Shown here one piece after another: positions 8,488-48,800 of a stretch of DNA of 64,000 bases. The translations under genes were made by a program, and so were the position numbers. Under the pieces are notes generated by a model. That model was not told where the DNA came from and searched no databases. It saw only the letters and a list, made by a program, of their open reading frames with translations. The stretch comes from a virus: positions 47,141-111,140 of the IMG/VR virus record IMGVR_UViG_3300043499_000238. One strand, 5' to 3'. Positions within the stretch are counted from its first letter, which is position 1. Every line of letters starts with the position of its first letter.

Positions 8488-8898
8488 ATGGCCTCGAACA
8501 GCGATCGCAGACATCTCTCTACACCGGGAGATGGATCGCGTCCGGGGCCATGGTTGCCGTTCCAGTCGACCCGGCTCAACGTCGCTAGGTACGACTCGGG
8601 CCTGCAGCAGATCCAGGTCATCTTCCGCGACGGCACACCGTGGGTCTACGACCAGGTGCCCCGCAACGTGTGGCGCAACTTCCGTCGAGCACCGTCGCCC
8701 GGTAGGTACATCGAGCGGGTGCTCAACGGCTTCCCCTACTTCCAGGGATCGTTCAGCTACTCAGGCCACCTCGACACGCGCGACGACGAGGAGTTCGGCG
8801 GCGACGTCGAGCCGGAGCGTCAGGTCGTCGGTCAGCAGTTCGGCGGGCCGAGGACAAGCGGCACGCCGCTCCAGTCGGTCGGCAATCCCTGGGTGTGA
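8488..8898 (+). CDS. KTSC domain protein
   Basis: STRLNVARYDSGLQQIQVIFRDGTPWVYDQVP...WRNFRRAPSPGRYI matches the KTSC pattern. Confidence 0.8.
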   Translation: MASNSDRRHLSTPGDGSRPGPWLPFQSTRLNVARYDSGLQQIQVIFRDGTPWVYDQVPRNVWRNFRRAPSPGRYIERVLNGFPYFQGSFSYSGHLDTRDDEEFGGDVEPERQVVGQQFGGPRTSGTPLQSVGNPWV

Positions 8899-10134: not shown

Positions 10135-11721
10135 GTGACGGCAGCCGTACGCGAGATCGCCGAAGAGCGATACGAGGAGTACGTCGAGGAGCAAGAGGAG
10201 GCCGAGGACTTCGTTGAGGTCGACCCCGACTCCGAGGAGTTCATCCACGAGCTGACGATGCGCTGCATGGTCTTCATGGAGGCGCTGGCCGAGATACAGC
10301 TCCACCCCTATCAGAAGGATCTGGCGTACCGCACGATCCAGTCGGTGTTGCTCAACGACGGCGCCGAGATCACCGCCCTGTGGGCACGCCAGTCCGGCAA
10401 ATCGACAGCGCTGGCGTCGATCATCGCGACGATGATGGTGCTGCTGCCCAAGTTGGCGGCCGCCTATCCCGAGCACTTCCCCCAGTTCGCTCGTGGGTTC
10501 CTCGTCGGAGTGTTTGCTCCGACTGAGGAGCAGGCGTACACGGTGTGGTCGAAGATCCACGACATCCTCACCTGCAAGCGCGGCCGCGAGATCCTCAGCG
10601 ACGAGGACATCGAGGACGTGCCGCAGAAGGAAGGCTCCAAGGTCAAGGTCGTCCGCCTCGTCAACAGCGGCTCGCTGTGCCGCATGCAGACCGCCAACCC
10701 GAAGGCGCAGATCGAGTCGAAGACGTACCACTTCGTGCTCCTCGATGAGAGCCAGGACTGCGACTCGGAGAAGGCACGCAAGTCGATCTTCCCGATGCTC
10801 GCCTCGACCAACGGCACCAAGGTGTTCACCGGCACCTGCTCGCGCAAGCGCAACTTCTTCTATGACGCCATCCAGGCCAACAAGCGCAAGGCGCTCCGTC
10901 GAGGCTCCCGGCAGGACCACTTCCAGTACAACTGGAAGGTCGTCGTCAAGTTCAACAGCTTCTACAAGAAGTACATCGCTGGGGAGAAGGAGCGGCTCGG
11001 CGAGGACAGTGACGAGTTCCGCCTGAGCTACGCATGCGAGTGGTTGCTGGAGTCGGGGATGTTCGTGACCGAGGAGTCGTTGGACTTCCTTGGCGATCCC
11101 GGCATGGAGATCCAGCCGTGGTTCGTGGTCGACAAGTGCGTTGCGGGAATCGACGTGGCGCGCACCAAGGACTCGACCGTCGTCACCGTGATGTGGGTCG
11201 ACTGGAACAACCCCGACCCGTACGGCTACTGCCAGCACCGCATCCTCAACTGGCTGGAGATCCACAACAAGCTGTGGGAGCAGCAGTACGCACAGATCAT
11301 CGAGTTCCTGTCGCACTACAACGTCGCGATCGTCGGTGTCGACGGTCAGGGCATGGGCCAGCCCGTCGGCGAGCGCATCGCCCACGAGATGCCGTGGGTC
11401 GACGTGCGCATCCTCAGCTCGGACCAGTCCACCCAGGAGAAGCGCTGGAAGCGGCTCAAGGCGTTGATCGAGCGGCGCATGTTCATCTACCCGGCCGGTC
11501 GCAAGACCAAGAGGCTGCGCTGCTACAAGCGCTTCCGGCTGCAGTTCGAGGAGCTGGAGACGGCGTACAGCGGCAAGTACATGCTCGCCGCAGCGCCCGA
11601 GGCGGTCAACGCCTTCGATGACTACTGCGACTCGGCGGCCCTCGGCGTGGCCGTCACCGAGGACGAGGACTTCGGCGTGGTGCAGGTGGTCGACTCACCG
11701 TTCCATGGTCGCCACCGGTAA
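10135..11721 (+). CDS. terL: Terminase large subunit
   Basis: Walker A ARQSGKST, Walker B FVLLDESQ, coupling FTGT, RNase H-like AGIDVA..DST and DDYCDS. Confidence 0.95.
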   Translation: MTAAVREIAEERYEEYVEEQEEAEDFVEVDPDSEEFIHELTMRCMVFMEALAEIQLHPYQKDLAYRTIQSVLLNDGAEITALWARQSGKSTALASIIATMMVLLPKLAAAYPEHFPQFARGFLVGVFAPTEEQAYTVWSKIHDILTCKRGREILSDEDIEDVPQKEGSKVKVVRLVNSGSLCRMQTANPKAQIESKTYHFVLLDESQDCDSEKARKSIFPMLASTNGTKVFTGTCSRKRNFFYDAIQANKRKALRRGSRQDHFQYNWKVVVKFNSFYKKYIAGEKERLGEDSDEFRLSYACEWLLESGMFVTEESLDFLGDPGMEIQPWFVVDKCVAGIDVARTKDSTVVTVMWVDWNNPDPYGYCQHRILNWLEIHNKLWEQQYAQIIEFLSHYNVAIVGVDGQGMGQPVGERIAHEMPWVDVRILSSDQSTQEKRWKRLKALIERRMFIYPAGRKTKRLRCYKRFRLQFEELETAYSGKYMLAAAPEAVNAFDDYCDSAALGVAVTEDEDFGVVQVVDSPFHGRHR

Positions 11722-15091: not shown

Positions 15092-15310
15092 ATGAAGCAG
15101 CTCGCAACCGTCATGCTCGCCGAGATCATGGACTCGCCGGACTTCGCCGAGATCATGTTCCTCGTGGCGTTCATCCTGTTCGTCATCGAGGTCGTGCGTC
15201 TCGCCGTCGGCCGCGGCTCGGCGTGGGACTTCCACTGGATCCTCGTCGTCGCCGGTCTCGCCTGCATCTCTCTCGGGCTGCTCGCCCTACCGACCGGCGC
15301 AGCACCGTGA
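15092..15310 (+). CDS. Small 2-TM membrane protein
   Basis: Two hydrophobic segments, AGGGGA RBS. Confidence 0.65.
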   Translation: MKQLATVMLAEIMDSPDFAEIMFLVAFILFVIEVVRLAVGRGSAWDFHWILVVAGLACISLGLLALPTGAAP

Positions 15311-15417
15311 CGCCAGCCGTGCTGTCGGCGATCCTCGCTGATGGCATCTATGTCGGCGGCGGCTTCCTGCTGCTGGTGCTCGTCATCATCCTGATCGTCA
15401 TCCTGCTGCGGAGATAG
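15307..15417 (+). CDS. 36-aa single-TM peptide
   Basis: GTGA overlap; YVGGGFLLLVLVIILIVILLRR. Confidence 0.6.
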   Translation: MTPAVLSAILADGIYVGGGFLLLVLVIILIVILLRR

Positions 15418-15419
15418 CG

Positions 15420-15635
15420 ATGGCCGCCCACGATCATCTCGGCGCCCAGTTCGGTGTCGGCGACACCGTGCACGTACCAGGCCACGGGCCGGTCACCGTC
15501 GAGTCGATGAACAAGCGCTACTTCTCCGGCACCACGGCGTCCGGTGAGCGTCTCGGTCAGACCGGCATCGGTCTGGCCGCCGGGCAGGGGATGCGTGGCG
15601 GCACCCCGTGGCGGGTCGAGAGAGGCGCCGAGTAG
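15420..15635 (+). CDS. Small SH3/KOW-like protein with N-terminal DHLGAQF tag
   Basis: MAAHDHLGAQFGVGDTVHVPGHGPVTVESM. Confidence 0.6.
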   Translation: MAAHDHLGAQFGVGDTVHVPGHGPVTVESMNKRYFSGTTASGERLGQTGIGLAAGQGMRGGTPWRVERGAE

Positions 15636-15638
15636 CTC

Positions 15639-16433
15639 GTGACGATCCGAGGCCGTATCTACCGAGGGGAGGTGCGCCACGCCGTTCCGACGTACCAGCA
15701 CCCCGACCCAGCGGCGCATGCGGCCGAGGATCCCGAGGGCTTCCTCCACCAGTGGATGCAGCCGCACTACCCGTACCCGAAGGGCTGGACCGGCGACGCT
15801 CCCACCGTCGGCCAGCACTGGACGCGCTCGCCGCAGAGCATCCCCGAGCGCTTCATCGAGCCGGTGCTGCTGCGCCCGCAGCCGGGTGTGCCGATGGGCA
15901 AGCGTGAGCAGACCGCCGTGATGCGCCGGGAGGCGACCGAGCAGGACACGGGTGGCCCGGGCTACGGCATGCCCGGCCACGAAGAGCACCAGGAGATGAT
16001 GCGCAAGTACGCGGCGCATGCCGACCGAGCTGACCGTCAGGGCATCAACACGTACCACGATCTCTCCGGCGGCGACCCGGACCGCCCGGGAGCGGCCAAG
16101 CCGTACAAGATGGCCGTGGTGTGGGAGGGCCAGCACCATGAAGCTGCCGAGCAAGGCACCAACTACGAGGACGAGCTGAACATCCCCATGGGTGAGCACG
16201 TCACCGTCACTGGTGCGCGCATCTACGTACCGAAGCCAGGCGTGGAGCACGACTTCCGGGCGCGCCACCCGTCGGTGTTCACGCCCGAGGAGCACGCCCA
16301 CGCACGGGCCGACGTGATCACTCGATCGGCGTACAGCCACATCGACCCCCACTCGTCTATCCCTTGGAGCCGGATCCAGTTCGAGAACGCTCAGCAGCTC
16401 AAAGTCGATCGCTACCGGGGAGGGTCGCGCTGA
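15639..16433 (+). CDS. Putative ADP-ribosyltransferase (R...ExE type)
   Basis: IYRG strand, GQHWTRS, YEDELNIPMGEHVTVTG (ExE). Confidence 0.6.
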   Translation: MTIRGRIYRGEVRHAVPTYQHPDPAAHAAEDPEGFLHQWMQPHYPYPKGWTGDAPTVGQHWTRSPQSIPERFIEPVLLRPQPGVPMGKREQTAVMRREATEQDTGGPGYGMPGHEEHQEMMRKYAAHADRADRQGINTYHDLSGGDPDRPGAAKPYKMAVVWEGQHHEAAEQGTNYEDELNIPMGEHVTVTGARIYVPKPGVEHDFRARHPSVFTPEEHAHARADVITRSAYSHIDPHSSIPWSRIQFENAQQLKVDRYRGGSR

Positions 16434-16447
16434 GCTACAGTGATCTT

Positions 16448-16816
16448 GAACGTTGGCGTGAAGAAGGGGACGAGTTATGCGACAACCGGCTCGCCCTGGA
16501 GTAGTCGCTGACGACGGGGTCGGGCCGCAGGCACGCAGGTCCGGTTGGTCCGACCCCGACCATTCGATGGAGGGCACGTACTGGTGATCTCGATCGGTGC
16601 TGGTGAAGCACGGGCACTTGCCCCTGACGCTTTCCTTGGATGCGACGTACAGCCTTCTGGTTCGCCGGACTGGCCGAGGCGGGACACCATGGTCTGTCGT
16701 TCAGGGAGAGAGACCCGGATGGATCCAGAGACCGACGAGGGCATCGGGTAGGCGTTCACGGACGTTGAGAAGTGCGGGGGGACCGTGATCCTCCCAATGC
16801 GGCGACGTGCCCTCCC
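16448..16816 (+). ncRNA. Candidate ~370-nt structured non-coding RNA
   Basis: Own TACAGT box (16436-16441) not followed by a start codon; perfect 11-bp long-range stem 16569-16579/16805-16815; 12-bp stem 16515-16526/16547-16558; several small hairpins incl. a UUCG loop; no credible ORF. Confidence 0.6.
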
Positions 16817-16844
16817 TCAATCCAGCGAGCAGTACGGTTGGTCC

Positions 16845-17057
16845 ATGGCCAAGCACGAGCACATGACGCCGGTCGACGCCGTCACCCACGCCGCGCTCAT
16901 CGGGCACTTGATCCGCGGCACGGTGGTCGAGGGCAAGAGCTTCGTGGAGGCACACGCCGATGCCCGCAAGGCTGTTGGCGCCGGAGCGGAGAGCCACGTC
17001 CGTCACGCCGGTCCTGCGATCGATGAGGCGCTCTACCCGTCGTGGGCGCAGCCATAG
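16845..17057 (+). CDS. Hypothetical His-rich protein
   Basis: TACGGT-6-ATG; MAKHEHMTPVD... Confidence 0.65.
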   Translation: MAKHEHMTPVDAVTHAALIGHLIRGTVVEGKSFVEAHADARKAVGAGAESHVRHAGPAIDEALYPSWAQP

Positions 17058-17093
17058 CTCCCCCGTGATCGGGGCCAGATCTACGCTGGGGCC

Positions 17094-17561
17094 ATGACGA
17101 CCCCTGCTCCCGTCCTCACGATCACGCCCGCCTCCGTGAACCGGACGGCCGCCGATCTCACCCCCACCGTGAACCTCGCCGACACGGCGACGCACACGCC
17201 CGTCGCCACCGGCCGCTCGTTCCGGTTCGACGCCGTTGCCGTGAAGGCGACCGTCGGCGCTACCGGAGCAGGCATCTCCTCCGCAGTGCCGTACCCCGTC
17301 AACCTTGCCGCCGGTACTCGCCAGGGCAGCGTCGCCACGACGAATACCGACGGCACCGGCACGAGCGCCAACGTTGCGCTCACCGTGACCGACGCAGTCG
17401 CCACGCAGTACGCCACGCCGGTCTACGTCGAGAACAACAAGAACGTCAGCCGCTGGTTGCCCGAGCAGCTCCCCAACGAGTACCGCGACCCCACGCTGTC
17501 GACGCCGGGGCTGCCCACGGCGACGGGCGTGTACAACGCCCGTACCCGCGGCGTCATCTGA
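17094..17561 (+). CDS. Hypothetical Thr/Ala-rich beta protein (possible virion decoration)
   Basis: TACGCT-6-ATG; Ig-like composition. Confidence 0.65.
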   Translation: MTTPAPVLTITPASVNRTAADLTPTVNLADTATHTPVATGRSFRFDAVAVKATVGATGAGISSAVPYPVNLAAGTRQGSVATTNTDGTGTSANVALTVTDAVATQYATPVYVENNKNVSRWLPEQLPNEYRDPTLSTPGLPTATGVYNARTRGVI

Positions 17562-17562
17562 C

Positions 17563-18660
17563 GTGCCTCGGGTGGCCGAGCCACCTGGGCAGGCTGGGTC
17601 CACCCGTCTAGCCCGCGAGCACGTCGACCGTACGCGCGACCTGACAGCAGCGGCCGCTGCGCCGGGCGACACCAACGCTGCTGTCGACGCTCACCAGCAC
17701 GCCGTCAGTCGTGTGCAGGACCACGCCGGGCGCATGGGCGTCAACCTCGTTGACCTCCCGCCGATGAACCCCAAGCCGTTGCGGCCGGGACAGGTGAGCC
17801 AAGGCACGCTGTGGGACTCCCGCTCGATGAAGCCGTCGCCGGAGCACCAGTGGGCGGCGCACGGCTACTCCCCCGAGCGCCGCGACGCCATCGCCGCCGC
17901 GATCCCCAAGGTGGGTGTCTCGTCTTCCTTCTCGTACCCCGGCGGTAGCACGGGCGTGCCGTACACGGGCGAGGTCACTGGCGGTGTGTATCCGGCGATC
18001 GGTCAAGTCGGCGGCAAGCGCAAGAACCAGGTGGCTGCGACACGCAACTCGGTGGTCGACATCCTCGCTCGATCGACGGCGCCGTTGGGCGACATCGTCA
18101 ACGCCACGCCGGACATCAAGGTGCAGCCGATGGCGAGAGCGGCCGGTCAGCACCGCACGAAGATGCGCGGGTGGGAGGACGAGCCGTTCGTCCGTGAGAT
18201 CAAGCTCCACCCCGGTGGCGGCCCGGCGCGCACCCGTGCCCAGGTCGAGCACACCGTGCTCCACGAGTTCGGGCACAACGTCGACTTCGAGCGTGACCGT
18301 AAAGCCTTCACCACCAACGCACGATTCAACCTCCCGGCGGTGGAGGGGTTCGCCGAGGGCTACGCCGCCAAGCACCGGGTGGGGCGGCGCAACGAGCCAC
18401 CCGTTCCGTACTCCGGCGTTGCCGCCTACAAGAGCATGCACGGTCGCTCCTCGTTCGGTGAGAACTTCGAGCGTGCAAGCGGGCGATCGCTCCCTCAGGC
18501 GATGGGTGCGCAGAAGCATCTCGGTGAGCAGTGGTCGCAGGGCAAGCTCTTCACCGGATCGAGCGAGACCGGTTTCGTCAAGGATGAGAACGAGCCACTC
18601 CCCACGATCTCGAATGCCGAGTGGGACCACCTCACCGGGCGCAACCGTGCCCGCCGTTGA
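17563..18660 (+). CDS. Zincin-type metallopeptidase-like protein
   Basis: TVLHEFGHNVD (HExxH) and downstream VEGFAEGYA. Confidence 0.7.
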   Translation: MPRVAEPPGQAGSTRLAREHVDRTRDLTAAAAAPGDTNAAVDAHQHAVSRVQDHAGRMGVNLVDLPPMNPKPLRPGQVSQGTLWDSRSMKPSPEHQWAAHGYSPERRDAIAAAIPKVGVSSSFSYPGGSTGVPYTGEVTGGVYPAIGQVGGKRKNQVAATRNSVVDILARSTAPLGDIVNATPDIKVQPMARAAGQHRTKMRGWEDEPFVREIKLHPGGGPARTRAQVEHTVLHEFGHNVDFERDRKAFTTNARFNLPAVEGFAEGYAAKHRVGRRNEPPVPYSGVAAYKSMHGRSSFGENFERASGRSLPQAMGAQKHLGEQWSQGKLFTGSSETGFVKDENEPLPTISNAEWDHLTGRNRARR

Positions 18661-18961
18661 CCATCTCAACGGCGAGCTGTTCCACGGCACCGCTCACCCG
18701 TTCGAGCCGGGCGACATCGTCAGCCCCACCGACACCGAGCACACCGAGTTCCCGACGGCGTGGGCGACACCACGGATGGACGAGGCCAACCAGATCGCAC
18801 GGGCCAAGGTGCGTCGGCACAACCGTCGCAACCCCGACGACCCAGCCACCGAGCACGTCTTCGCCGTCGAGCACATGAGCAAGCCGGTCGATGTGTGGGG
18901 ACGAGCCAACGTCGCCGCAGACCCCGTTGGCTTCCGCGTACTACGTAGGGTTGGTCCGTGA
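18647..18961 (+). CDS. Small Arr-like ADP-ribosyltransferase-fold protein
   Basis: LFHGTAHPFEPGDIVSP...AWAT...HVFAVE...GFRVLRRV; 3' part of ORF 17915-18961, GTG start. Confidence 0.6.
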   Translation: MPAVDHLNGELFHGTAHPFEPGDIVSPTDTEHTEFPTAWATPRMDEANQIARAKVRRHNRRNPDDPATEHVFAVEHMSKPVDVWGRANVAADPVGFRVLRRVGP

Positions 18962-20649
18962 GCATCGCCTTCTGGCCTCCGAGCTACCGCGCCGGTACCT
19001 CGGACCTTGCCATCCAGATCTCGCCGCTCGGCCTGGTCGACCTCAGCAACGAGGAGATGGAGGTCCACGGCATCCGCCTCAGCAGGTACTCGCTCTACTG
19101 GGCGCACTACCTCGGCCACCACTGGGCGTACCGCCGTGAGGTCGGCGAGCCGCAGTTCACGTTCAACTACGTGCGGGCACTGAGCGACTACCTCACGAAC
19201 TTCACCTTCGGCCGTGGCGTCACCTTCCAGTCGCCGCCAGCGACCGCCGCCATCGTGCCCACACTCCTCAAGCGAGTGTGGGAGGGCGACAACCGCAAGG
19301 CCGCACTGCTGTGGGAGATGGGACAGATCGCCTCGGTAACCGGCGACCTCTTCGTCAAGGTGGCGTACGAAGACCCGTTCGTTGACCCGGCGGGACGGGT
19401 CCATCCTGGCCGGGTTCGGATACTCCCTCTGAACCCGGCCAACTGCTTCCCGCAATGGCACGAGCACGACCGCACACGGCTGCTCAGCTTCAAGCTCAAG
19501 TATCGCTTCTTCTCCACCGACCAGACCGGCACGCGCATCGTCAATACCTACGTCGAGCGCGTCACCGACAACGGCATCGAGGAGTACGTCAACGACGAGC
19601 TGATCTCGGCCCGCCCCAACCCGCTGGGCGTGATCCCGATCGTCTACATCCCCAACATCATGGTGAGCGGCTCACCGTGGGGACTGAGCGACATCGGCGA
19701 GGTGATCCCGCTCAACCGTGAGTACAACGAGAAGGCGATCGAGATCTCCGACATCGTCAACTACCACTCCGCTCCCGTCACGGTGATCACCGGGGCCAAG
19801 GTGCCGCAGTTGGAGAAGGGTGCGCGCAAGACGTGGTTCCTGCCCAAGGACGCCAAGGTCGAGACTCTGCAGTCCACCTGGCAGCTAGAGCACATGCTCG
19901 GCTACATGGAGGTCGTCAAGCGGGGCATGCACGAGATGACCGGCGTGCCGGAGCAAGCGCTCGGGCAGGTGCAGCCGATCAGCAACACCAGCGGCGTGGC
20001 GTTGGCGATCCAGTACGCGCCAACGATGCAGCGCTTCCGCATGAAGAAGAACAACTTCGAGACGGGCTTCCAACAGATCAACGAGCTGGTGCTCTTGACG
20101 CTGTTCCAGAAGGAACCCATGTCGATGCAGTTCAACCCCATGGAGGATCTCGCCCCCAAGCCGGGACAGCTCACAGCGCTCGATCCCGCTGACCCCAACA
20201 GCTACGAGACGTCGGTCTACTGGCCCGAGCCACTGCCGGTCGACGTGCTCGTCAAGCTCAACGAGATCGCACAGAAGATGCAGCTCGGCATCGAGTCCAA
20301 GCGCGGTGCGCTCGCCGACCTCGGTGAGGAGTTCCCCGACGCCAAGCTCGCCGAGATCTTCGCTGAGATCCTCGAAGACTCCAAGGATCAGGGTGCGTTG
20401 CAGCTCCAGAACAGCGCCATCCAGTCGGCGATCGTTGCGCTCACCGGCATGGTGCCCCAGGGCGGCGAGGTGGCCGACACCGGACAGCAGGGTGCCGACA
20501 GCGGCTCGCCTGACGCTGGTGGTACCGGCATCATGCCTGGTCTCGTGCTCGATCAGAACACGATGAACCTCATGAACGAGCTGACGACTCGGGCGTACCT
20601 GCCTCGCATGGGACAGTTCAGGAATCCCTCCAACGCAGGCATCGAGTAG
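18958..20649 (+). CDS. Portal protein (SPP1 gp6-like)
   Basis: 563 aa; NPLGVIPIVYIPN, WGLSDI, SNTSGVAL; position before scaffold and capsid. Confidence 0.9.
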   Translation: MSIAFWPPSYRAGTSDLAIQISPLGLVDLSNEEMEVHGIRLSRYSLYWAHYLGHHWAYRREVGEPQFTFNYVRALSDYLTNFTFGRGVTFQSPPATAAIVPTLLKRVWEGDNRKAALLWEMGQIASVTGDLFVKVAYEDPFVDPAGRVHPGRVRILPLNPANCFPQWHEHDRTRLLSFKLKYRFFSTDQTGTRIVNTYVERVTDNGIEEYVNDELISARPNPLGVIPIVYIPNIMVSGSPWGLSDIGEVIPLNREYNEKAIEISDIVNYHSAPVTVITGAKVPQLEKGARKTWFLPKDAKVETLQSTWQLEHMLGYMEVVKRGMHEMTGVPEQALGQVQPISNTSGVALAIQYAPTMQRFRMKKNNFETGFQQINELVLLTLFQKEPMSMQFNPMEDLAPKPGQLTALDPADPNSYETSVYWPEPLPVDVLVKLNEIAQKMQLGIESKRGALADLGEEFPDAKLAEIFAEILEDSKDQGALQLQNSAIQSAIVALTGMVPQGGEVADTGQQGADSGSPDAGGTGIMPGLVLDQNTMNLMNELTTRAYLPRMGQFRNPSNAGIE

Positions 20650-20719
20650 CGTTCGACCTCTTCACGCTGGGTAGATAACCTCTACTGGCACAACGTCGAA
20701 CCACCGCCGGAGGCTTTCA

Positions 20720-21577
20720 ATGTCGGACAGCAACACCATCCAGGTCGATCAGACGGGTGGGCAGCCCGCCAACAGCACAGGTGGTGCCAATCCGCTCAGT
20801 ACCGGCAACGGCTTCCTCACTGGTGTGCAGCCCGCTGCACAGCCGGGGAGTGTGACGCAGACCAACCCGCAGGGTCTGTCGGCGGCCGAGCTGGCGTTGG
20901 TTCAGCAGCACGCCGCCCAGGCTGCTCAGGCCGCCGTCGCACCGCAGGGCGAGACGCTCGCCGAGATGCAACAGCGCATGGCCGCCATGCAGACCGAGCT
21001 GGACGCCGCCCGTACCGCTCGTGAAGCGTCCGAGGCCGAGGCCGCTGCTGCCGAGCAGGCCCGCCTCGATGCCGAGCGTGCCGCCGCCGAGAGCACCATG
21101 TCGGCCACCGAGCTGGTCGGTCAGGTGCGTGCCGAGATGCAGGCCGAGTTCGCCGCGATCCAAGAGCGCGCCGCCGCCAGCGAGGCGCTGCTCGAACGTG
21201 AGCGTCGGTACAGCGCACTGCAGGACTACAAGGCGCAGCGTCTCGCCGACCCCGAGATCGCCGCCGCCGTGATGCCGCACCTCCACCCGTACATCGTTGG
21301 TGGCAGCGAGCAGGAGATCGAGGAAGCGATCGCTCGGGCGGCGCAGACGTCCAGCAGCATCGTGGCCGAGTTCCAGCAGTACCAGCAGCAGTACCGCCAG
21401 CAGGCACCCGGCGTGTCGCCGACGGCGCCGACGACCGGCCCGCTGGAGCAGCAGCAGTCGACGCGCCCGATGAGCGCACAGGAGATCGCGGCGCTCCCCG
21501 ACGCCGAGTACGCACGGCTGCGGCCACAGTTGCTGCGCGCTGCGGGACAGCAGTTCCGCGCCCAGCGCGGAGGCTGA
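20720..21577 (+). CDS. Capsid scaffolding protein
   Basis: A/E/Q coiled coil, C-terminal 'IAALPDAEYARLR', directly upstream of MCP. Confidence 0.8.
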   Translation: MSDSNTIQVDQTGGQPANSTGGANPLSTGNGFLTGVQPAAQPGSVTQTNPQGLSAAELALVQQHAAQAAQAAVAPQGETLAEMQQRMAAMQTELDAARTAREASEAEAAAAEQARLDAERAAAESTMSATELVGQVRAEMQAEFAAIQERAAASEALLERERRYSALQDYKAQRLADPEIAAAVMPHLHPYIVGGSEQEIEEAIARAAQTSSSIVAEFQQYQQQYRQQAPGVSPTAPTTGPLEQQQSTRPMSAQEIAALPDAEYARLRPQLLRAAGQQFRAQRGG

Positions 21578-21605
21578 TAGCTCCCGTCGTACGAAAGGGT
21601 CGAAC

Positions 21606-21663
21606 TACTGTCTCTTGTAGGTCAGCAGCTCGTCTGATCGTCGCGACCTTCAAGGAGTAACTC
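21606..21663 (+). promoter_or_regulatory. MCP promoter (TACTGT) and hairpin leader abutting the AAGGAG RBS
   Basis: CTTGTAGGTC...GACCTTCAAG stem overlaps the RBS. Confidence 0.45.
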
Positions 21664-22791
21664 ATGCCCGATATCTCAGGTGGCATCTCGGGTACTGGCA
21701 ACCTGTACTCGGGTGTGTCCGGTGGATCCAACCCGGCTGCCGTCCCGGTTGGTGGTGCCTTCCTCGGGGTGCAAGTGCCACCCGCCCCCAGCGGTCTCGT
21801 GACCCAGGGCTATCCGCAGGGGACGGCGATCACCGGCTCCACGACGATGACCCCCGCGGTCCAGACGATCTGGTCCAAGGAGATCCTCTTCCAGGCGATG
21901 CCCATCCTGAGGTTCGAGCAGTTCGCGGTCAAGAAGACCGAGCTGGGCGTCACCCCCGGCCTGACCGTGAACTTCATGAAGTACAACAACCTTGACGTCG
22001 ACAGCGTCAACGGTGCGACCCTCACCGAAGGCATCCGCATGAGCACTCGTGCGCTGTCGGCCTTCCAGTTCCGCATCACGGTCGCCGAGCAGGGCACCGC
22101 CGTCGCCGTCTCCGAGCTGCTGCTGCACGCCTCGTTCGATGACGTGATGGCCTCGGCCTCTCGCCTGCTCGGGCGCCACATGGCGCAGTCGATGGACTAC
22201 CAGGCCCGCAACACGCTGATGCTGGCGCCGGGGTCCGAGGTCTACGGCTACGACGACGCCGCCCCCTGGCAGGGCGCCTCGACCAACATCTACGAGCCGG
22301 GCACCAAGGCGGCCAACGCCGCCGCAGTGACCGGCGCCGTGGCCGCCACCAACAAGTACTACCTCACCCCGCACACGGTGAAGGACGCAGTGCAGGCGCT
22401 GGCGTCGCTCAACATCCCCCGCCTCGGCGAGACGTACGTCATGTTCGCCCACCCGGCGCAGGCCCGCCGGTTGCGTGACTCCCCCGAGTTCATCGAGGTC
22501 ACGAAGTACGCCGCCCCCGGCAACTTCATGCTCGGCGAGATCGGCCGCCTGTGGGACGTCGTCATCATCGAGACCACGCAGGTCAACTACGCCGCTGCGG
22601 GTGCGGGCAACAACTACTACGACGGGATCATGATCGGCGACAACGCCTTCGGTCACGCCGTGTCGTTGCCGGTCGAGCTTCGCGATGGCGGAGTCCTCGA
22701 CTTCGGGCGTGAGCACGCTCTGGCGTGGTACGCCATTTGGGGTTGGGGTTCGATCACGCCGCAGGCCGTGGTCCGCGTCCTGACGAACTGA
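21664..22791 (+). CDS. Major capsid protein (N4-gp56-like, HK97 fold)
   Basis: 375 aa; LTEG, EQGTAVAVSE, GEIGRLWDVVIIETT, DFGREHALAWYAIWG. Confidence 0.92.
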   Translation: MPDISGGISGTGNLYSGVSGGSNPAAVPVGGAFLGVQVPPAPSGLVTQGYPQGTAITGSTTMTPAVQTIWSKEILFQAMPILRFEQFAVKKTELGVTPGLTVNFMKYNNLDVDSVNGATLTEGIRMSTRALSAFQFRITVAEQGTAVAVSELLLHASFDDVMASASRLLGRHMAQSMDYQARNTLMLAPGSEVYGYDDAAPWQGASTNIYEPGTKAANAAAVTGAVAATNKYYLTPHTVKDAVQALASLNIPRLGETYVMFAHPAQARRLRDSPEFIEVTKYAAPGNFMLGEIGRLWDVVIIETTQVNYAAAGAGNNYYDGIMIGDNAFGHAVSLPVELRDGGVLDFGREHALAWYAIWGWGSITPQAVVRVLTN

Positions 22792-22818
22792 ACCCCTACC
22801 AAGCCCTCAGGGGTTGAG

Positions 22819-22848
22819 GACGGAGCGCCCCTTCGGGGGCGCTCTGTC
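22819..22848 (+). terminator. Terminator hairpin after MCP
   Basis: GACGGAGCGCCCC-TTCG-GGGGCGCTCTGTC. Confidence 0.8.
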
Positions 22849-22863
22849 GCGTACCGTGGAGGT

Positions 22864-23373
22864 GTGGCCGCCAGCGATCACGTCAACCCTGATCAGCTCC
22901 AGCTCTTCATGACGGGCACGGAGTTGAAGGGTGCGATCACCGACTCGATCGACCGCAATCCGCTCGGTGGCTTCGGCGGCACGATGGACAAGATGTGGGC
23001 GACCAAGCTGCGCCAGTCCAAGCGCCCCGCCGACCATCCCGGCCATGGTGCTGGCATCTACCAGTCGATGAAGCAGCACGGGTGGAACCCACCCGAGCAG
23101 GTGTGGGGTGACGAGGCTCCTGGGTGGGACAACGCAGGCTTCGAGATCAACCACGTCCGCAAGTACGGAGGCATCCCCGAGTGGGACCGTACCGAGGTCT
23201 CTGTCACGGGCGCCCACCACCGCATCGCTGCGGCCGCCGACATCGAGGCCAAGACCGCTGGCACGAAGAGGCCGCGCACGATCTACTTCCCGACGGCCAA
23301 CAACCAGTACGAGCACCCGTCGATCATCCCGCCAGATCGCACGCCAGCGAAGAGCGATCGCCTTGCCCGCTGA
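22864..23373 (+). CDS. ParB/Srx-like protein with N-terminal DHVNPDQLQLF tag
   Basis: IYQSMKQHGW...VTGAHHRIAAA resembles the ParB GHHR motif. Confidence 0.6.
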   Translation: MAASDHVNPDQLQLFMTGTELKGAITDSIDRNPLGGFGGTMDKMWATKLRQSKRPADHPGHGAGIYQSMKQHGWNPPEQVWGDEAPGWDNAGFEINHVRKYGGIPEWDRTEVSVTGAHHRIAAAADIEAKTAGTKRPRTIYFPTANNQYEHPSIIPPDRTPAKSDRLAR

Positions 23374-23701
23374 CGAACACCTCGGGCTGCAGTTCGACTA
23401 CGACAACCCCGAGCTGGGCACAGCGAAGGTCGTCCACCGGGTCACAGCGAGAGCAGGCCCACTGTTGAACGAGGTGGGGCGGATGCTCTGGAACAGTCGC
23501 AGCATCCTCAACATCGACGTCGATCCGCAGCACGCACGTCGTGGGGTGGCGACATCGATGTGGAACGAAGGTCACCGGCTCGCCGAGCAGAACGCTCGCG
23601 TCCCCGCACCCAAGCACTCACCCGATCGCACAGCGATGGGCGATGCATGGGCGCGCTCGGTCGGAGGGCAGCTTCCCCGGCGCAAGAGAGACGCTGGTTA
23701 G
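23363..23701 (+). CDS. GNAT acetyltransferase with N-terminal EHLGLQF tag
   Basis: ILNIDVDPQHARRGVATSMW (motif A); TTG start in the frame of ORF 23108-23701. Confidence 0.75.
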   Translation: MPADEHLGLQFDYDNPELGTAKVVHRVTARAGPLLNEVGRMLWNSRSILNIDVDPQHARRGVATSMWNEGHRLAEQNARVPAPKHSPDRTAMGDAWARSVGGQLPRRKRDAG

Positions 23702-45873: not shown

Positions 45874-48800
45874 GTGCCGATCTATCGGACCGGCGCTGGC
45901 ATCTACACCGTCGTCCAGACGTGGGGTCAACTGACTGGTGGTGCTGTTGACGTAGCGAGCTTCGTCTCGCAGGTCAACGTCGCTGCGCCGCCGGTCGTCC
46001 CGCAGCGTTACGTCTCGCCGCTGAACATCGCCGTCCCATCGCTCTACCTCGTCCCCACCCCGACTGCCTACGTCGAGACCGGGCTGTCGATCTCGATCAC
46101 CGCCACCGTCGCCACCGTGACGGAGTCGGCCAAGTACAGAGAGCCGTGTGTCGTCACCGGCACTCCCTACCTCTACCCCACCACCGGCCGGGCCACCACG
46201 CCAGACCCCGGCATCCCTCCCTATCCCTTCCACTGGCTGGCCAAGCTGCGTGGTCCGCAGAGCACCTCGGCCTCCGACCAGTACGTCGCCAGCCAGGGCG
46301 CCGCATCCGGCTCCTACTCCTACGAGTTGGCCCGCCGTGGTACCTCGACGGCGACATCTGCGACTGGTGCTTACGTCAGTAGTGACGGGACTAACCGCTT
46401 CTTTGCCTCTGCTACGGCGCCGATCGACAAGGTGAATCCTCAGTACATCGCCGCCAGCATTCAGGACGACACCGTCAACACACGAGCCATTGTGTACACG
46501 TCTCCCGATGGCACGACGTGGACCCAGTACGGCTCCAACTCGAACACCAGGGTCACGGCGCTGTTCGACTCCAACGATGTGGTACGTATCGGGGGTCGAG
46601 CTAACGACACCAGCCTTGGTCGGTGGGACGACCGCATCTACTGGGTCGAGATGCGTAGCGGCCTCACCATCGGTGGTGGGACGTTGCTGTGGCGCTTCGA
46701 TGCGTCGGAGTGGGGTACCAGCACGACGTTGGTCGACCCTCGTGGTCTGACATGGACGTTGTCGGCAGCCGGTGCCATCGTCCAGCCGCCGGGTGTCGAG
46801 GCGACGGTCACCAGCACTGACATCTACCGCCAACATGAGCCTGGCCTCTCCATCCCGATCACAGCAACGGTCACCTGCACCGATGCGCTGAGGCACGCCT
46901 ATCAGGATCTCGGCCTCTCGATCACCATCGCCGCTGCCGTTACCGCAACCGACGTGGCCCACCGCAAGGAGATCGGCCTGTCACTGCCGATCGTCGGAAC
47001 GACAACGACATCCGACATCATCCACCGCAAGGAGCTTGCGCTCTCCGTTGCGATCGCGGCGACCGTCGCCTGCACCGACACCTACCACGCAGGGTCCACC
47101 AGCCAGAACTACAACGAGACCGGGCGCGTCCTGGCCATCGCCGCCACGACCACGCTGCCCACCACCTCGGCGCACTACCACGAGATCGGCACCCCGACCG
47201 CAGCTCCCTACCGCTTCGCCGAGGACTGGAACACCGCCGACGCCAGCAACTGGGACTTCCTCAAGTGGCCGCACCAGCGTCCGTTCGACTCGATCTCGGG
47301 CGGCGTGGGGATGATGGCGACGGGTGGCAGCCCGACGCAGGTCTACGGCGATACGTACGTCGAAGACTTCGAGATGACGGTCAAGATGACGTGGCCGTCG
47401 TCCATTGGCGGGCAGTATCCCGAGATCGCCTGGCGAGTCGCCGACGGCATGGGGAACATCGGCAGCATCACCGCCTACGCCATCCAGATCAACGGCTCGG
47501 GCAACGGCATCGACATCTTCAAGATCGGTGCGTACTCCTCGATCGGCAGCGCCTCCGACGCTTCGCTGTTTGCTGCTGGCACACGGTGGTTCAAGATCCG
47601 TGTGGTCGGCAACAACCACAAGGTCAAGTGGTGGCTCGACGGCTCGGCCGAACCAGGCACCTGGAACATCGACGCCACCGACGCCACGCCCCTCACCGAC
47701 TCCGCCGGTCTGCCAGTCGTGGGAGGTGGCATCGGCTTCCGCTACTGGGGCGCTACGCAGATCTGGTACGACGACCTCACCGTCACCGACCTGAACAGCA
47801 CGCCACTGCCGATCGACGGCTCGCTCCGCATGCTGAGCCACGGCAAGGTCAACATGGCGGGCAACGCCAACGTCTTCAACGTCGACACCGACCTGACGTG
47901 GTGCTGCTGGTTCAAGACGACCTCCCTCGTCGTCGGCTGCCCGGTGATGTCGTTGTTCAACGGCGGCTCCAACTACTGCATCACGACCCTGCAGTCCGAC
48001 GGTGTGCTGCGCCAGTACATGAGCACGGGCGACTTCAACATCGGCACCACCCTCTCGCTCAACACTTGGTACTTCATCGCCCTGTCTCGCTCGATCACCG
48101 GAGGCTCCGACCTCTACTGGGCGCCGCAGGGCACAACGACGTTGAGCAGTGTGCACAGTGCCAGCGTCGGTGTCGTCACCGGTCAGCCGCTGCGCCTGCT
48201 GTCGGACGAGTACGGCAGCAGCCCCTACGAGATGGGTGCCGCCTTCAAGGTGTGGAAGGCAGCGCTCACCCAGGCCCAGCTCGAAGCGGAGATGGCGACC
48301 TACAGCGCCGTGCGCACCGCCAACCTGTTCGCCTCGTGGCCCATGCGCAACGGGCTGAGTCCGTACTCGGAGAACCCCGTCGACAACAACCTGCTGCTCT
48401 ACTACGAGGCGGGCGGCATGGTCTCGGGGCCGGTGGCTTCCTTCCTCACCGATGCACCGGTACCGAGTGGTGGTGCGGGCAGTGGGTTGGCGATCGCGGT
48501 GGCAGCGGTCACCACTGCGACGGACAAGAAGGCGTACGCCGAGCTGGCGCTCTCCATCCCGATCGCAGCGACCGTCACCGAGACAGACCTGATCCACCGC
48601 AAGGAGCTGTCCCTCCCGCTCCCGGTGGCGGCAACGGTCACCGAGACCGGCGGGGCGCACTTCAAGGAGCTTGCGCTATCGCTCCCCATCGCCGCCGTCG
48701 TAGCGGTCAACGACGCCTTCGGCCACCTCGGCAACTTCTCGGACCTCAACCTGTCGATCCCGATCTCTGGCGCTGTGGTGACGACCAGCAAGGCGACGTT

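Follow-up and report, generated by a model that had tools for sequence, protein, structure and literature searches.

A short N-terminal tag on unrelated small enzymes in a family of uncultured myophages: a candidate address signal

The internal proteins IPI–III and Alt of phage T4 carry an N-terminal capsid-targeting sequence (CTS) (PMC3012670). In phage P1, the first 30 residues of DarB suffice for packaging into the head (PMC9024508), and DdrB, which combines ParB and zincin domains, is incorporated into P1 heads (PMC5512222). Among the polyvalent proteins that phages deliver (Iyer et al. 2017, PMC5512222), ADP-ribosyltransferase (ART), ParB and zincin domains act as hubs. Here we analyze a short peptide that opens four otherwise unrelated genes in a stretch of 64,000 nucleotides from an uncultured phage (the window; positions 47,141–111,140 of IMG/VR record IMGVR_UViG_3300043499_000238, which is 111,140 bp long with 65.7% GC). 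Sequence comparisons indicate, with a probability that we put at roughly 0.8, that the peptide is a modular N-terminal address tag read by one common partner. By analogy with the systems named above, that partner may be the virion, in which case the tag would load enzymes into the capsid; this more specific part of the interpretation is tentative, with a probability near 0.35. Coordinates refer to the window unless "genome" is stated, and L and G numbers designate loci and genomes of uncultured relatives, all of them contigs.

The tag resembles the T4 CTS in its length of about 10 residues, in its position at the extreme N-terminus, and in its occurrence on otherwise unrelated small proteins that include an ADP-ribosyltransferase. 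It also resembles the internal protein (IP) loci of T-even phages, with their polymorphic tandem arrays and exchange at the leader-coding sequence, for which the counterparts here are arrays of tagged genes and a chimeric junction. Arrays and recombination at the IP locus of T-even phages are said to have been described by Repoila et al. in 1994. Unlike the T4 leader, the tag has no similarity to MKTYQEFIAE, and neither an L/I-x-E cleavage logic nor a T4-type prohead protease was recognised; the phages are relatives of BRock-like actinophages, and two orthogonal tags are present. As in the Dar system of P1, the signal is short and N-terminal, and the Dar cargo also includes ParB-like and zincin domains (PMC9024508, PMC5512222). 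P1, however, loads a few giant proteins stepwise via the helpers Hdf and DarA, whereas here a single short consensus is spread over many single-domain proteins, and nothing resembling DarA or Hdf was identified. The polyvalent proteins are similar in repertoire, which here comprises ART, ParB/sulfiredoxin (Srx), a zincin-like peptidase (recognised from an HEFGH motif and a sub-threshold Pfam match only) and a DarB-like helicase beside one array, and in the proposed role as early-delivered counter-defence or takeover enzymes. They contain 2–15 domains per polypeptide, often on a MuF or portal carrier, whereas here each domain is a separate tagged gene. That a MuF carrier is lacking had been part of the original prediction and was borne out, as PF04233 (Phage_Mu_F) had no match in the genome in a search whose control worked.

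Encapsulin cargo-loading peptides are short terminal peptides on unrelated enzymes that bind the inner face of an HK97-fold shell. The tag follows the same "label plus cargo" logic in concept, but encapsulin peptides are usually C-terminal, have another consensus and belong to a bacterial nanocompartment, whereas this one is N-terminal and encoded by a phage. MIX, FIX and RIX of the type VI secretion system (T6SS), DUF4157, and the N-terminal payload signals of extracellular contractile injection systems and Photorhabdus virulence cassettes (eCIS/PVC) are N-terminal markers on polymorphic toxins and enzymes, the cargo of contractile injection machines. These bacterial markers differ in being larger domains or disordered regions of about 50 residues, and no homology between them and the tag was found.

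The N-terminal tag and its conservation

Four open reading frames (ORFs) of the window had been predicted to begin with M-[AP]-A-x-[DE]-H-[LV]-[GN]..[QE][FL], and we confirm that this motif directly follows ATG, GTG, GTG and TTG start codons at 15420, 18647, 22864 and 23363, respectively. Translated in all six frames, the window contains exactly 4 matches to the strict pattern; all of them are on the + strand and immediately follow a start codon. Two further tagged genes are present in the whole genome, at genome 16695 (MSAADHLGEQMRLF) and 17045 (MAASDHLSDRQLRMF). Both are ParB-like paralogues of gene 22864 and lie in the replication module, where their neighbours include genes for DnaB, an SNF2 helicase, a family-A DNA polymerase and RecA. 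The enrichment of the motif over background is clear: the genome has 7 instances of [APST]-A-x-[DE]-H-[LV] right behind a start codon, whereas 60 second-order Markov simulations of it averaged 0.23 and never exceeded 2. Of the 7 matches, 6 sit in real + strand genes. When the six-residue core is sought in any frame and strand of the genome, 7 of 10 matches lie directly after a start codon.

The possibility that the true starts lie downstream of the motif is contradicted by Arr-like orthologues from independent metagenomes (54–97% identical), which were independently called at the tag start and in which A3, H6 and L7 are invariant. In many relatives a stop codon lies 1–10 codons upstream of the tag, so that a longer reading frame is impossible there. 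Amino-acid conservation starts at codon 2–3, and the upstream DNA is unrelated across cargo families. Synonymous codons vary among 32 distinct tagged genes, with GCC, GCA and GCT at Ala3, GAC, GAT, GAG and GAA at Asp/Glu5, CAC and CAT at His6, and CTC, CTG, GTC and GTG at Leu/Val7. The use of several synonymous codons at conserved residues points to selection on the peptide, and the tag is thus selected at the protein level. Codons ending in A or T are over-represented in the tag although the GC content at third codon positions (GC3) of the genome is about 88%.

The consensus of the tag is M-[APST]-A-x-[DE]-H-[LV]-[GNS]-x-x-[QE]-[FLM]. Residue 2 is invariably a small one (A, P, S or T). Under the methionine-aminopeptidase rule the initiator Met is therefore predicted to be cleaved off, leaving [A/P/S/T]-A-x-[D/E]-H-[L/V] as the free N-terminus. 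The portable part is about eight residues, M-x-A-x-[DE]-H-[LV]-[GNS].

Weaker variants that had been proposed in other genes did not hold up. KHLGEQW of the zincin-like protein is internal and lies in a region that is conserved throughout, and an equally loose pattern also matches non-coding frames; the C-terminal "QF" variants (AVNTKQF in gene 13404 and VVGQQF in the KTSC-domain protein) are indistinguishable from chance. On these comparisons, the weaker variants look like chance or ordinary conservation. MPAIDLL in gene 27626 was also rejected as a tag, being internal and not conserved. A small protein at 16845–17057 starts with MAKHEHM, and this N-terminus is kept in orthologues (L006, L012); E5, H6 and M7 resemble the tag, but Lys replaces Ala3, and the peptide may represent a degenerate form of the tag or have no relation to it. 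Genome 15155–17434 (L001), about 30 kb ahead of the window, contains a cluster of three ParB/Srx-like paralogues in which the motif reads G-G-Q-H-R or G-H-H-R. The first paralogue is longer, and its tag region is internal and degenerate (YHHTEERQLRMLM); the other two are fully tagged. A 236-residue minus-strand ORF of uncertain start contains, at genome 42755 and about 4.4 kb ahead of the window, a possible TTG followed by PADEKLTPER; the peptide resembles an H-to-K variant of the tag on the GNAT-like gene of L008 (MPAHEKLNGVQF).

Cargo, modularity and a second tag

Pfam and PHROGs searches with the window's tagged proteins gave nothing usable. Gene 18647, previously labelled Arr-like, has no direct Pfam match, and the profile of its family had no match among PDB sequences; the label is nevertheless supported, since the family profile aligns with L219:5393 at 98.4% probability (hhalign, E 8e-15). 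L219:5393 is a tagged ART from a relative with 52% GC and scores 31.4 bits with Pfam Arr-ms (cut-off 25), the domain extending from residue 11. The H-G-T motif directly after the tag in gene 18647 is the start of the domain and is conserved in the family with its H invariant, and Atlas leads pointed to Arr-ms, PARP and ART-PolyVal clusters. The GNAT label of gene 23363, whose start overlaps the preceding tagged gene by 11 nt, is supported by its 43% identity to L219:7430-7786(-), a tagged protein that passes Pfam GNAT (Acetyltransf_10, 32.4 bits, cut-off 23.6, domain from residue 19). Its AlphaFold2 (AF2) model has a predicted local distance difference test score (pLDDT) of 77.9, with residues 1–5 below 50, and Foldseek matches it to AAC(6'), SpeG and RimI (aminoglycoside, spermidine and RimI acetyltransferases) with a probability of up to 0.99. 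For gene 22864 the ParB-like label is weakly supported by the G-x-H-H-R motif, weak structural matches and the PHROG match of a relative. Its AF2 model (pLDDT 60.7, about 51 for residues 1–10) gave weak VIA-align matches to sulfiredoxin, Osa, SbnI, KorB and PadC (Z 2.0–3.4) and nothing significant with Foldseek; the product is 27% identical to L219:5770, which matches a ParB-like PHROG. The earlier label "SH3-like" for gene 15420 received no support from any tool used, and this gene has no Pfam, PHROG or Atlas assignment.

The suggested "tag plus cargo" modularity is supported by the presence of the same tag on about 19 unrelated cargo clusters, by a tagless orthologue, by variable linkers, by tag-to-tag junctions and by a second, interchangeable tag. 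The L012 orthologue of gene 15420 has the same cargo with an untagged start (MAIRGRVPRFGVGDTVHVP), and in L013 a GNAT-like orthologue begins with the tag but has 33 extra residues between tag and domain. In the AF2 models of the GNAT-like and ParB-like proteins, confidence is low over the tag, and the terminal aromatic or hydrophobic residue of the motif lies in the first beta-strand of the cargo. Going by these sequences, the tag is an add-on outside the cargo domains that appears to be required at the very N-terminus.

A junction between genes 22864 and 23363 illustrates how tags may move. Through TTGCCCGC, the sequence matches the junction between the end of ParB1 and the start of ParB2 in the relatives L006 and L011, and from GACGAACACCTCGGG on it matches their GNAT-like start; both relatives have two extra tagged genes between the TTGCCCGC and GACGAACACCTCGGG points. 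The chimeric junction, together with the two extra genes in the relatives, implies an in-frame gain or loss with a crossover inside the tag, and on this alignment the GNAT-like start in the window is a chimera from tag-to-tag recombination. The slot directly after the gene for the major capsid protein (MCP) holds ParB-like cargo here but GNAT-like cargo in L012 and L019, behind an upstream sequence and tag that are the same in each case. As far as can be judged from such alignments, recombination inside the tag-coding sequence accounts for gains, losses and exchanges of the tag.

When the loci are pooled, the 47 distinct tagged proteins sort into 19 cargo clusters, although one of these is probably due to chance. 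The tag always occupies residues 2–12, and the proteins are mostly 53–220 residues long (one has 422), with a single recognisable domain each. Among the Pfam matches of tagged cargo in relatives, Arr-ms and GNAT are above the cut-off and ParB_N is at the cut-off, and a DarB-like helicase is a neighbour. A scan of IMG/VR for A-x-[DE]-H-L-G-x-Q-F, a pattern that carried no start codon, gave 38 matches, 17 of them exactly two codons after a start and on new cargo families. In the same scan of bacterial genomes, 4 of 120 matches follow a start-type codon, and all 4 lie 135–478 codons inside open frames, which corresponds to the chance rate. Comparison of an Arr-like profile with 1.84 billion representatives detected 136 relatives; 46 of the 134 inspected begin with the strict tag, and many more begin with a D-N-L or D-A-L variant. 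Tandem arrays of 3–10 tagged genes were found in L038, L219/G009, L232, L238 and L304, and in G009 ten tagged genes within 8 kb adjoin a DarB-like helicase fragment.

Tagged genes were found in contigs of 41–67% GC, from uncultured myophages of about 90–115 kb. Those contigs with visible structural genes belong to the same phage family as the window, with MCP about 60–79%, portal 53–69% and large terminase (terL) 45–55% identical. Among Streptomyces myophages, BRock, GiJojo, LuckySocke, Alone3 and pSt2308 have MCPs 59–63% identical to that of the window, and they share its gene order from terL to the tail sheath. The whole genomes of BRock and GiJojo contain no tagged gene.

Some Arr-like relatives begin with MGRNNxDF instead of the tag described above (the DHL tag). 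An IMG/VR scan for MGRNNxDF yielded 71 distinct ORFs, about 65 of them with the motif at a true N-terminus, on dozens of unrelated bodies. The genes often occur in tandem arrays of three or four, and their synonymous codons vary freely. Phages with this second tag are 92–96 kb long, have direct terminal repeats, and possess an MCP 60–69% identical to that of the window. MGRNNxDF is carried by homologues of the window's GNAT-like and Arr-like proteins and by a ParB_N protein; the genome from which the window comes has no MGRNN motif. On this evidence, the DHL tag is interchangeable with MGRNNxDF on the same cargo families, and the occurrence of the same cargo families under different tags in one phage family suggests that the tag serves something phage-owned rather than cargo chemistry.

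Other leaders were also observed. A third leader, MAIPFHDRRTGE, occurs on some Arr-like relatives (P0049, P0057, P0076, P0122), and an ART-like gene (..DLFHGT..) located after the tail-collar fibre gene of a relative (L006:12621-13064) starts with MAARQKISVDQFGD, which is distinct from the DHL tag.

Candidate partners of the tag

The precedents of the T4 CTS, the P1 DarB signal and the phage-delivered polyvalent proteins make the virion the best single candidate for the common partner. Across this one family of myophages of about 90–115 kb, the tag has been added to many small accessory enzymes that are otherwise unrelated. In the virion scenario, the partner would read the tag, tagged enzymes would dock into the assembling virion, and the docked enzymes would be delivered along with the DNA, as is the cargo of the T4 CTS and of the P1 DarB signal. 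An extended version, in which at least two orthogonal N-terminal octapeptides (MAASDHL.. and MGRNNxDF) would constitute an address code that loads dozens of fast-evolving single-domain enzymes into the virion for co-injection, strikes us as doubtful.

The location of the tagged genes has been taken as a sign of a role in the virion. They are interspersed with terL, portal, MCP, neck and sheath genes in at least seven different gene orders, which points to the virion. The earlier statement that they lie between terL and the neck genes is true of the four in the window and fails for the whole genome and for relatives. Both tagged genes of G001 are in the head module, and the single one of G005 is in the neck/tail region; tagged genes follow a homologue of gene 26082 in L016, L018 and L025, follow portal and MCP in L031, and precede terL in L008 and L038, and MGRNN genes are typically found 2–6 kb upstream of terL. 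The association of tagged genes with structural genes is frequent, not exclusive.

Several observations weigh against loading into the virion. About half of all tagged genes are located elsewhere than in the head module. In the genome, two of six belong to the replication module, outside the structural module. All three of G004 are likewise in the replication module, syntenic with the genome's ParB-like pair, and those of G010, 40 kb from the MCP gene, are also outside the structural module. Most tagged proteins are neutral or acidic, whereas the internal proteins of T4 are basic. The lack of a recognisable prohead protease, as noted in the original prediction, fits the absence of S78 and ClpP matches in the genome in searches with working controls, and no cleavage motif was recognised in the tagged proteins; Peptidase_S77 (PF03420; T4 gp21 type) had no match in the genome, nor in control genomes. 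In a presence/absence comparison of genomes, no gene co-varies cleanly with the tag, and no receptor was identified. Both tags occur together in single genomes (L238, L243, L289, L304), so that one receptor cannot explain everything. Finally, megablast and tblastn comparisons with 50,697 deposited phages detected no tagged homologue, and no cultured tag-bearing phage was found.

Among other possible scenarios, the one that survives best is a docking peptide for a partner outside the virion. This partner would be a single hub of the host or the phage to which different enzymes are brought, for example the replisome, RNA polymerase, a chaperone or a phage replication compartment. Many tagged genes are located in replication or nucleotide-metabolism neighbourhoods, and the tag is near-identical across phages of 41–67% GC, as would be the case for a very conserved partner. 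The ParB-like members moreover have Q-[LM]-x-[LM]-F right after the tag, which we take to resemble the beta-clamp-binding pentapeptide QLxLF. However, this part is found only in the ParB-like cargo, where it is modelled as the first strand of that fold, while the shared core is A-x-[DE]-H-[LV], and the phage encodes no clamp. A universal host hub also leaves unexplained why the same cargo carries a different tag in close relatives and none in BRock and GiJojo. We consider docking to such a hub unlikely. The motif was considered separately as a beta-clamp-binding site and rejected; in the remaining cargo families the corresponding residues are G-x-Q-F or x-L-F and run into the domain's first strand.

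It is also conceivable that the tag is a leader or recognition sequence for one processing or modifying enzyme (a protease, or an enzyme of N-terminal modification) that serves many substrates. The strictly N-terminal position, the invariant D/E-H pair and the zincin gene adjoining tagged gene 2 would fit such a leader, which would also be compatible with virion loading, the T4 CTS being cleaved too. However, no enzyme gene co-occurs with the tag, and two candidates from the presence/absence comparison failed when more genomes were included. No maturase stands beside the tagged arrays in L219 and L304, the neighbours there being genes for a helicase, HSP20, an M23 peptidase, ribonucleotide reductase (RNR), and PASTA and KTSC proteins. 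The zincin is missing from the tag-bearing L012 and G001 and was rejected as an obligate partner or protease. Taken together, a processing leader appears improbable.

Still less probable, in our assessment, is a regulatory N-terminus, that is, a degron or stability signal or a translation-initiation context that gives potentially toxic enzymes a common timing or lifetime. The cargo enzymes could harm the producing cell, and the obligatory N-terminal position, the predicted Met removal and the excess of A/T-ending codons in the tag are in line with regulation at this level. Against it, the 8–11 specific residues kept across 41–67% GC with free synonymous variation exceed the needs of an initiation context, several tagged genes have GTG or TTG starts that overlap the upstream gene, and we know of no actinobacterial degron that resembles the tag. 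A DNA-level repeat that acts only as a recombination junction for cassette movement and encodes a functionless peptide would account for the crossover behind the GNAT-like start and for the cargo swaps after a constant upstream sequence in the post-MCP slot, but it is highly improbable given that tags within one genome are only about 60–65% identical as DNA with amino acids conserved, that synonymous sites vary freely, and that frame and distance from the start codon are invariant.

If the address tag is indeed a virion-loading or sorting signal, the accessory "arsenal" of a large uncultured phage family, most of whose cargo is unannotated, would be recognisable from sequence, and T4-style leader-directed packaging would extend to an unrelated phage family without a recognisable prohead protease. 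If the address code were true, sequence alone would suffice to predict the injected effectors, and foreign proteins could be packaged by means of the tags; reporters or enzymes, too, could be loaded into phage particles with short portable tags of this kind. Should the tag instead be a signal for hub docking or processing, it would still amount to a conserved N-terminal code of 8–11 residues common to about 19 protein families and undescribed in open-access papers and preprints, where its motif strings gave no match. A search for the receptor could draw on a natural experiment, as there are cargo families that occur under either tag, orthologues that lack one and cultured relatives without any.

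Structural context and other genes

The coordinates of the main features are collected in Table 1. The stretch studied starts at terL and is completed 3' of the MCP gene by neck genes, a tail-collar fibre gene and the sheath gene.

Table 1. Tagged genes of the window, structural landmarks, and loci with the second tag
Feature	Position	Strand	Description
Large terminase, terL	10135..11721	+	Opens structural module
Tagged gene 1, 71 aa	15420..15635	+	ATG; tag MAAHDHLGAQF at 15420-15452; small domain, fold unassigned
Zincin-like protein, untagged	17563..18660	+	HEFGH motif; Pfam Zincin_1 sub-threshold, E 0.039
Tagged gene 2, 104 aa	18647..18961	+	GTG; tag (M)PAVDHLNGELF; Arr-like ADP-ribosyltransferase
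Portal protein	18958..20649	+	PHROG 64, E 6e-40
Scaffolding-like protein	20720..21577	+	Position and homology to GiJojo scaffold
Major capsid protein (MCP)	21664..22791	+	PHROG 1357, E 6e-61; marks phage family with both tags
Tagged gene 3, 169 aa	22864..23373	+	GTG; tag (M)AASDHVNPDQLQLF; ParB/sulfiredoxin-like, G-A-H-H-R motif
Recombination junction inside tag	23290..23420	+	Alignment with relatives
Tagged gene 4, 112 aa	23363..23701	+	TTG; tag (M)PADEHLGLQF; short GNAT-like acetyltransferase fold
MGRNNxDF examples	L238:12529-13455; L304:5307-6938; L261:919-1855		From the range of loci L234-L307

The zincin gene, directly upstream of tagged gene 2 and portal, is conserved in L006 and L011. 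A KTSC-domain protein is encoded upstream of terL, at genome 55628–56038 (window 8488–8898), and likewise in distant relatives (L304:10444-11160); in L304, a PASTA-domain protein precedes it.

Two genes were tried and rejected as tag-specific. One, at genome 24418–25248, is missing from most tag-bearing genomes. The other, at genome 6742–7710, has a homologue in BRock and is a core gene. The latter (L001) encodes a protein of about 240–320 residues directly upstream of DNA polymerase I and is present in 10 of 10 other tag-bearing genomes tested; the match in BRock is weak, none was found in GiJojo, and the protein has no Pfam family. It is probably a divergent core replication gene.

In G014–G021 and G024 (e.g. 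G014:C1:10668-11756), the MCP match falls into two pieces (query 53–~320 and ~304–375). The pieces are about 50–120 bases apart, with in-frame TAA codons in one case. Possible causes of this split in the capsid gene are a frameshift, an intron and an insertion.

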